A stretch of 64,000 nucleotides of DNA, from NCBI GenBank assembly GCA_050575255.1, contig JBNZDD010013686.1, positions 1,813,021 to 1,877,020 on the forward strand, in the 5' to 3' direction. A program made the translations under genes and the position numbers. Below are positions 12,801-15,800 of the stretch, one piece after another. A model generated the notes under the pieces. The model saw only the letters and a program-made list of their open reading frames with translations. It had not been told where the DNA came from and did no database searches. Positions within the stretch are counted from its first letter, which is position 1, and every line of letters starts with the position of its first letter. The stretch comes from Harriotta raleighana (taxonomy: Eukaryota).

Positions 12801-15800
12801 TGGGCACAAATGTTTTCTTGTCTGTCTTGGTACCAAACTAGAATCAATAAGGCAGAAGCGACAAACCTGACGCCAGACTTTACTATGGCTGGGTAACCCG
12901 TCTGTAAGAGGTGAAAGTGAATAAAATACCTGTAGGTTATACTGATTGATTAAATCCGCTTTACATCTTAATGTTCTCCACGGAAAACAGACTAGATCTC
13001 TATGTCAGCAACCTCAAATTTGAACCTAAGCGCTACTCTGGCCAAGTGTATTTGGGTGCCAGATTAATGAGAAACTGTGATCATAACTAAGCAACTTGTG
13101 CTCTCCTCCAACTACTCAGCTTGTGTTTTTGTGGAGATGTGCATTTCAGTTAAACACATTTATCTGTTGTTTAATTATGTACTCAATCTAGTTTAGTTTG
13201 TTTGAATTGATTTATTTCAATCCACTAGTACTTTAGTGATTTTATATTTAATTTCTCCTCCTCCCCTTCATTTTCCCCCATACCTTACCCTAAAATTATG
13301 GTTACATTTTAGGGAAATCTAAATAGTATATTTCTCAACATCGCTGTAAAAGAGTAAATTTTGTTTTCTTCCATCACTGTTAGATTCTCTTTAAAATTGC
13401 TTGGGTGTTTTGAAAACTTTCTTTTAAACAAAAACAATTACTAATGATTTCCATTAACAATGATGATCCCTTTATTTCTCTTGAAATTCAAGGATTTTAT
13501 TCAGAGTCAGGTCAATGCTAGGATTTATTATGGTACAGGACTAAAGATTTAATTTGATTGTTGATTAGCGAAGTTTACATATTCATATTTTGTTGGTGTA
13601 CCACAGAAGAAAGCCAGGGTTATTTCTCTCCTTCTCTCAACCTTCAGAGATGTATCCAATCTTACTTTTTTTTGAAACTTTTATGAATTTCATAAGCGTG
13701 GTGTTGTTGATGTTACTGAGCCAGGGCCATATAATGTTGGAAAAATACATGAGTGACGGAGAATTGAAAATGCTTTGTGTGTGTGTTCTATTGAATAATC
13801 TTAGAAACAGAGCGCTTGTGATTTAAAAAAAAAATCCTAAAGAACTCTGCTTGAGTTTCTGTTGAAATATAGTTTTAAAGTTATTTCCAGTTATTTATAT
13901 TGCTGTTTATTAGGTCCATCGTGGCGTACCAGCCTGCTGGAGTGAACACCCACAAATTTGATGTTTCTGCCATGTTCAAGTCATTTGGCATATTCCTGGG
14001 AATATTCAGCGGCTCCTTTGCAATGGGAGCTGCCACTGGAGTTGTGACTGCTCTAATATCCTTTACCTGTTGCTTCTGTTAAGAGTTCCTTAATTTAACC
14101 TCAATCATTTGAATGAAAAGTCTTGTTTTAATTTTTCTTTGTACTGTGTGTTTTTTTGATATAAAAAATTCCTAGATCTGAATTATGTTAAATTATAATC
14201 TGGAACCACAAAGTATTGTTCACCTTCAGGTTTCTTACATATTATCTTCCTTGTAAAAAAAAATTGAAAACTAATTACAGTACTTGACTATTTCCGCATT
14301 TGTTCTATTTAGTACTTTTCAGAAGCTATAAGGCAGCCTTGATCTACAGTATGATGCATTGGTGCTCTAAAAGTTTGCAGTATTCAGTGATACAGCATGG
14401 CTTTGTCCTAGTGACTTTTACAAATGATCTTGGCTTTGTTAGCAGAACAAAGCACTGAGCAAAACCACTCTCTCCAAAAGCACAAAGGGAGCAAGTGTCA
14501 AAGGCAGTTTGCAGTGGGCTGTCTTTTGCCTCGCATCGGATTTTCTCTTTTGAAGATTTACAGAAAATGACTTTCATGACTTCCACTTCCAAAATTTATG
14601 AGATTTATTCAAAAGTTTGGAGTATTAACCTGTGTTTTCTCCCCCAATTTTTTTTAAAGATATTGCGTTCTATTCCAAATTGATTTTAGTCTAAATCTTT
14701 ACGTCTCACCCCAGTTATAGGCTTACATTGAATGACTGCTGCTTTCAGAAAATTAATTTATTATAAAACAAAAACATGGAAACAGTAAATTCCCGATTTT
14801 ATATTTGGAACAGAAAATAAGTATGTTTAATATGTGTACATATAATGTGACCTGTCGCCAAGGCTCCAACTACTGTAACCAACATGAAGGCTCCCACACA
14901 AACGCAGGTTATTTGTTATTTAATTTTGAAAGATCTGCTGGTTGATTTTACTTAACAATCTGTGCATGTTACAAAATTTACAAAGTTAAGAGATTTCCAG
15001 TTGCTGGAAACTGCACTTTTCTTCTTGATGTCATGGAGTACTTTCCTGTTGGCTGAAGCATGTGGATTTACAGGTAGGTGTGGAGCAGTCAAACTTACTA
15101 AAAGTATATGTTTACCTGAAATGAATTTATATCTCTTTAGATCAGGCAAGACAACATGAGTTTGAACAGCTTATTTAATTCAACAAGCATGCACTTTACC
15201 TGTGGTAGTTTGGGACGTACGTCCATGCGACCGCCAGAAAGGTAGAAGGCGAACTAGTTGGTCGTTGGTCTATTTTCATTTAGTATTTCTTATGTTTTTA
15301 TGAAACCTATTTGCAAAATAACAAATATATAGAGACTGATAAATATTTCAGGAAAAACATGATTTTGCCCACAAAGTATTGCACATGGTGGCAACCCCGG
15401 GGGAGATGATGCCCTGACGTGCGCTGATACTGTTATTTTAAGGGTTATCTGTTCGTACAAATGTTGATTTGGCTGAACAGGGAACTTGACGCCCAGTTGC
15501 TATCAGCCTTAAGTAACGTAGGCAGCTCATGGTGTATATTGTTGCATTTCAGGTGTTGTGGCTGTGCTATTCTGTGGAATCACACAAGCTCACTATACAT
15601 ACAACAACTTGTCACCAGAGTCCAGAATCCGAACCAAACAGGTGAGACACTGGGTCAAGCTGTCAATTCAAAGTATTTATTAGAGACAGAGGAATTTTAG
15701 CATCACATTCTGTTTGTTCTTGATCAATATGGCATAATGCAGAATGTGATAAAGGCATGGAGATTAATAATTGTTTTGGACTGTTTTTTAGAAATGTGTA

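Follow-up and report, generated by a model that had tools for sequence, protein, structure and literature searches.

A U12-type intron with AT-AT ends in the SLC9A6 gene of the chimaera Harriotta raleighana

The SLC9A6 locus and its minor-class introns

The window, by which we mean the whole 64,000-nt stretch of Harriotta raleighana DNA that was analysed, carries the SLC9A6/NHE6 gene on its plus strand (Table 1). When the window's 15 coding exons are joined and the intron at 14056-14967 is removed, a single open frame of 604 residues results, which matches the NCBI protein of Callorhinchus milii without gaps (594 of 603 residues identical) and shares 84-88% identity with three shark proteins and one hominid protein. 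The exon upstream of this intron corresponds to residues 301-347 of the solved NHE6 chains (E = 3.7e-20), and all 47 of its residues are identical in C. milii NHE6; it is the seventh coding exon, provided that the exon just upstream of the window (L016) is the first. Thirteen of the 14 introns of the chain terminate in AG and the remaining one, 14056-14967, in AT.

Three observations concern the surroundings of the gene and the assembly. Downstream, at about 53057-53220, lies a LIM exon of the FHL-family N-terminal type (Pfam PF25076, E = 8.8e-12), probably that of FHL1, which fits the human order SLC9A6-FHL1. A 195-nt stretch containing the entire exon 9489-9601 is present twice in identical form (9429-9623 and 9672-9866); the second copy begins right after a single N (9671) and runs into an N stretch (9867-10045), and the duplicate is most likely an assembly artefact rather than an exon duplication. 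Finally, a separate contig of 1001 nt (L004, G000:C24:1-1001) matches the upstream exon together with the larger part of the intron (13776-14777) with five substitutions and one 1-nt gap and is likely the other allele, kept as a contig of its own; it ends at 14777, short of the acceptor.

Table 1. Features of the SLC9A6 locus around the AT-AT intron, in window coordinates
Feature	Position	Strand	Basis or remark
SLC9A6/NHE6 coding exon preceding the intron, ends ...VVTAL	13914-14055	+	solved NHE6 chains, tblastn with C. milii NHE6, intact frame
U12-type (A-type) intron, phase 0, AT-AT ends, 912 nt	14056-14967	+	sequence, exon chain, human orthologous position U12 AT-AC
U12-type 5' splice site ATATCCTTT	14056-14064	+	exact RTATCCTTT match at homology-fixed exon end
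In-frame stop met on intron retention (ISFTCCFC*)	14080-14082	+	translation into the intron
Branch-site motif TACTTAAC	14949-14956	+	one mismatch to TCCTTRAC; predicted branch A (second A) at 14955
3' terminal AT	14966-14967	+	AC in orthologues and paralogues
Downstream coding exon, first base G	14968-15073	+	36/36 residues identical to C. milii P0003 329-364
Nearest competing AC	14971-14972	+	17 nt from branch, 5 nt downstream of AT; frameshift leads to a stop in the same exon
In-frame AA	14975-14976	+	21 nt from branch; use would delete VTK
Competing AC	14980-14981	+	out of frame, stop codons within the next exon
In-frame AG	14984-14985	+	30 nt from branch; use would delete VTKFTK
Second U12-type intron of SLC9A6, GT-AG	16993-17765	+	donor GTATCCTTT, branch motif TCCTTGAT
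Third U12-type intron of SLC9A6, GT-AG	20262-22101	+	donor GTATCCTTT, branch-like TCCTTCAT near the acceptor

An initial annotation, made from the sequence of the window, had described this intron as opening with a perfect U12 donor, holding a branch-like motif whose A lies 12 nt before the junction, and ending in AT. All three readings stand: the donor matches RTATCCTTT exactly, the predicted branch A of TACTTAAC is at 14955, and the last two bases read AT in the window with no change in the contigs of organisms A, B and C described below. The distance of 12 nt from the predicted branch A to the intron end falls within the 11-13 nt given as the optimum in PMC3584512, and the U12 consensus motifs are quoted in PMC2831892. 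The 12 bases past the branch A are mixed and contain no polypyrimidine tract, whereas most GT-AG introns of the gene are T-rich there. Sliding of the junction by one base is impossible: A closes the upstream exon and T the intron, and the intron opens with A and the downstream exon with G. RTATCCTTT is found four times in the window against 1.63 expected, a count that is weak on its own because 6 of 100 shuffles reach at least 4; all three plus-strand matches lie exactly at SLC9A6 exon ends, and the motif thus opens 3 of the 14 introns of the chain. Branch motifs with one mismatch occur at chance level in the whole window (94 seen against 102 expected), and the weight of the branch motif comes from its position, not from its count. 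With these signals, the assignment of intron 14056-14967 to the U12 type (A-type), AT-AT subtype, is confirmed at the level of the sequence. A second branch-like motif, TCCTTAAT, is present at 14087-14094, 31 nt past the intron start, and an AT follows its A at 12 nt; the 50-nt intron that it implies is probably too short for use.

The genome contains U11, U6atac and the CENATAC/CCDC84 gene. The 5' end of this genome's U11 is predicted to form a duplex of 7 bp (-6.5 kcal/mol) with the donor ATATCCTTT, and to pair likewise with the other two U12 donors of SLC9A6. Searching the genome with the U12 snRNA family gave no match, and the control was equally silent. The U11 match (L008, G000:C13650:2704778-2704911, minus strand) begins with T. 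Human U11 begins with A, and the boundary of L008 may be off by one.

The terminal T and the direction of change

Whether the last base of the intron is truly T was examined in contigs and reads from seven of 19 sequencing runs, none of the 19 being recorded as RNA. Contigs of three organism labels uphold T at 14967, as the initial annotation had read it, and neither the two raw-read runs nor a gut-metagenome run covered the base usefully. For organism A, the contig (run X2, depth 4.2) matches 14806-15046 with no other letters and with T at 14967; it may belong to the window's own species and is the weaker support. Those of organism B (run X5, depth 37) and organism C (run X10, depth 7.3) both span 14967 and show no difference from the window between 14945 and 15017. 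Elsewhere organism B differs from the window at about 8 positions in 100 (62 of 740, 14359-15098), with the donor unchanged (no difference at 14056-14065), and organism C differs at 14938, at 14944 and at three exon places; the branch motif TACTTAAC and the residues VTKFTK are unchanged in both. The base was tallied from the X2, X5 and X10 contigs, with X15 (organism C, covering 14939-15100) left out of the tally, and the coverage of run X14 is 15043-15098 only, short of 14967. In the raw-read run X17, 21 reads fell on a 1201-nt stretch, with a depth of about 0.2 at 14967, and run X18 contributed four reads, all less than 90% alike and confined to 15002-15079, none of them over 14967, which probably derive from a paralogue. 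A sequencing or assembly error disguising a plain AT-AC intron would be in keeping with the local fault of the assembly nearby (the 195-nt duplicate beside N stretches) and with the raw reads, none of which lay over the base. Such an error is nevertheless exceedingly improbable, because contigs of three organism labels, from three studies, carry the same base with the surroundings of 14967 unchanged, and organisms B and C, which differ from the window elsewhere, are not its source. On the evidence of these contigs, we regard T at 14967 as a natural base, fixed in a small group of related organisms.

The same intron is listed as U12 AT-AC in human SLC9A6, SLC9A7 and SLC9A9 in the supplement of PMC8280824, and the two paralogues in this genome, with introns of 1396 nt and about 1.5 kb, are AT-AC as well. 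A pattern scan of a metagenome record gave two fish-like NHE6 loci in total, L012 and L013, both ending in AC; L013 alone includes the donor and is AT-AC. In L013 and in both paralogues of this genome, donors reading ATATCCTT go together with AC ends. A fly Nhe3/SLC9A7 intron, putatively at the same position, is also listed as AT-AC in PMC2831892. Because the human SLC9A6, SLC9A7 and SLC9A9 introns, both paralogues and the two fish-like copies end in AC, AT is the derived state, and the switch from AC to AT is a fixed one. The initial annotation had suspected a natural AC-to-AT shift and had pointed to SLC9A7 and SLC9A9 as comparisons; the shift is supported by outgroups and paralogues with AC and by T in three organism labels, and the comparison yielded AC in human SLC9A7 and SLC9A9 and in both paralogues of this genome. 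Sequence comparison places the switch after the divergence from the bony fishes and before organisms A, B and C separated, and it could be older than the chimaera-like lineage, the DNA compared being that of human, of the two paralogues and of the fish-like copies. As NAC and NAT encode the same residue, proteins predicted by reading through the intron cannot tell an AC from an AT end.

How could the T have arisen? We propose CpG decay as the likely route, because in copies with an AC end the junction places AC directly before a G and the window is CpG-poor (observed/expected 0.38). Five of the six AC copies compared across SLC9A6, SLC9A7 and SLC9A9 show this arrangement with a Val codon following, namely human SLC9A6 and SLC9A7, L002, L012 and L013, and SLC9A9-type copies have C or T after the AC. 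The CpG would consist of the last C of the intron and the first G of the exon, and a C-to-T transition there would most likely have had a single origin before organisms A, B and C split. Among human introns, G follows 5 of 8 AT-AT ends against 5 of 14 AT-AA/AT-AG rows (Fisher p = 0.38; small set), the 14 rows being the first 7 of 12 'ATAA' and the first 7 of 51 'ATAG' matches; this comparison speaks neither for nor against the CpG route.

Choice of the 3' cut and output of NHE6

From frame and homology, we infer that the exact cut joins 14055 to 14968: only the removal of 14056-14967 yields a gap-free match to C. milii NHE6. Of all A-N dinucleotides after the branch, 14966-14967 is the only one within the 11-13 nt optimum of PMC3584512, the next being the AC at 17 nt. 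The AT-AC orthologues and paralogues, too, have an AC at this offset, as part of a Thr codon. It had been stated in the initial annotation that the ACs at 14971-14972 and 14980-14981 are out of frame, which agrees with the stops that they meet inside the next exon, and that the in-frame AG at 14984-14985, about 30 nt from the branch, would delete VTKFTK, which the sequence bears out. Two in-frame AAs were absent from its list, one at 14975-14976 and one at 14957-14958, the latter only 3 nt from the branch and too close. If the main product were made through the AA at 14975-14976, the AG at 14984-14985 or a cryptic major-class GT/GC-AG pair, the intron would not be functionally AT-AT. In UniRef, all nine models of C. 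milii NHE6 carry ISFT(C)Y/FQLL (the slash marking the junction), as would be expected if a cryptic GT or GC donor were spliced to the AG at 14991-14992, but the NCBI model XP_007890886.2 reads VVTAL/VTKFTKL. Moreover, 82 of 213 fetched homologues, from many vertebrates (P0002, P0121-P0128 and 73 others), show the same donor read-through (IS...), which speaks for a general annotation failure at this U12 intron. The remainder comprises 122 proteins with TAL/VTKFT, a share that is biased upward because the second homologue search was ranked on this junction, three that add SY, one that skips ahead and five unmatched by the patterns; the SY-adding models fit the use of an AG located 6 nt ahead of the AC, the arrangement of the human acceptor. 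A form in which VTK or VTKFTK is deleted occurs in 0 of the 213 fetched homologues. VTKFTK is kept in frame in full, with no change in organism B or C, and the AA and AG, at 21 and 30 nt from the branch, lie past the optimum of PMC3584512. On balance, a main product from one of these other sites is very unlikely.

Could the AT end serve as a built-in brake, being used slowly or losing part of the transcripts to the AC 5 nt downstream, so that nonsense-mediated decay would leave less NHE6? Both retention and the frameshift end in early stop codons, the preferred dinucleotide AC is available 17 nt from the branch, and the choice of U12 3' sites is called error-prone in PMC3584512. In addition, the human SLC9A6 AT-AC intron is already sensitive to CENATAC, its retention rising from 0.03 to 0.22 on loss (PMC8280824), and T persists in three organism labels. 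This persistence, however, is no sign of selection: with organism B only about 8 in 100 different, a neutral base would mostly remain the same. The AC downstream owes its presence to the conserved Thr codon and occurs in AT-AC copies as well, and the spacing of the SLC9A6 intron is at the optimum. As a proxy, we compared control retention, taking 198 of the 204 rows that the A-type sheet of PMC8280824 (supplementary file 5) contains. The rows dropped from the proxy are 30 with mean counts below 10 (one of them AT-AT) and one labelled U2, and the control retention values were copied by hand. Human AT-AT introns (n = 7, median 0.081) were no more retained than AT-AC introns (n = 140, median 0.085; Mann-Whitney p = 0.90), a comparison that draws its seven AT-AT introns from a single human data set and does not register cuts displaced by a few bases. 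An excess of retention in AT-AA introns (n = 9, median 0.295, p = 0.009) was set aside, several of them sharing their donor with an AT-AC row. The initial annotation had suggested that the AC-to-AT change may slow splicing or make it imprecise and limit NHE6 expression; by this proxy, throttling of NHE6 by the AT end is not supported, and we consider a brake unlikely, though a small effect may exist. Slightly less probable still is the proposal that AT is a lineage-fixed tuning site, at which a well-spaced weaker AT competes with a badly spaced stronger AC, a measurable share of transcripts is destroyed and the dose of NHE6 is thereby set, with AT-AT ends arising by CpG decay at the AC-G junction as a rule.

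We favour, with a probability of about 85%, the reading that an ancient minor intron of the NHE6/7/9 family has T as its last base in the chimaera-like lineage, against C in the relatives compared, and is likely excised as AT...AT at near-normal efficiency. In the mechanism that we propose, U11 would pair with the donor ATATCCTTT and U12 with TACTTAAC, and the 3' cut would be set mainly by the distance of 12 nt from the branch A. An A would occupy the penultimate place, and any last base would be tolerated in introns whose first base is A; the change from AC to AT would then have been fixed because of its low cost. The locus adds a datable AC-to-AT switch, which three related organisms have in common and which affects an intron with AT-AC ends in human; it suggests that a vertebrate NHE6 tolerates T here. 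Human SLC9A6 is a disease gene, and for a like change in it the chimaera intron provides weak comparative evidence. The intron is also an annotation trap: nine of the ten public models of C. milii NHE6 have this junction wrong. A new mechanism would be at hand only if RNA showed substantial use of the downstream AC.

Comparison with known AT-AT introns and SLC9A relatives

AT-AT introns form a small, catalogued class. In Table S1 of PMC10639083 they account for 701 of about 73,700 conserved animal minor introns (0.95%), which agrees with the description of AT-AT as a rare tolerated variant in the initial annotation, and the same source ranks AT-AT as the second commonest non-canonical end in animals. 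According to PMC1557818, there are six AT-AT introns in human and six in mouse, AC/AT switches between the two species occur in ERCC5, GPAA1, ZC3HDC6 and SLC9A8, and AT-AN ends are spliced productively, though less well than AT-AC. Reporter experiments, as summarised in PMC1557818 and PMC3584512, rank AT-AC as more efficient than AT-AT, and non-canonical ends often splice less well in such reporters. The combination of U12, AT-AT and SLC9A6 was found nowhere in the literature searched, and a chimaera entry for this intron may already exist in the MIDB/intronIC tables. Taken together, the chimaera SLC9A6 intron is a further case of a known rare class, with a likely harmless one-letter variant.

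The human AT-AT U12 introns of UBR3, ERCC5, KCMF1, SMC3, IK, SRSF12, TCTN1 and HNRNPLL listed in PMC8280824 have the same ends and the same donor class as the chimaera intron, and share with it the short branch-to-end spacing and the AT-AN ('A-type') class. They are backed by RNA, the chimaera intron by DNA sequence. Within the exchanger family, mouse Slc9a8 provides a parallel: an SLC9A U12 intron that is AT-AT in mouse and AT-AC in human (Table 3 of PMC1557818) and thus likewise represents a lineage-limited AC-to-AT switch. Paralogue and lineage are different, and the likeness lies in the kind of switch.

The closest known counterpart, along with its SLC9A7 and SLC9A9 equivalents, is the human SLC9A6 AT-AC intron (chrX:136010584-136012948 in the supplement of PMC8280824), which belongs to the same family and shares its position, its phase (...TAL/VTK) and the donor ATATCCTTT with the chimaera intron. 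Both introns contain a CTTAAC branch motif, and the chimaera gene has two further U12 introns, both GT-AG, in line with the three rows given for human SLC9A6 in PMC8280824. They differ in their last base, which is T in the chimaera and C in human, in their branch motif (TACTTAAC versus GCCTTAAC) and in the distance from the branch to the intron end, which is 12 nt in the chimaera compared to 9 nt in human. At 912 nt, the chimaera intron is also shorter than the human one of about 2.4 kb.
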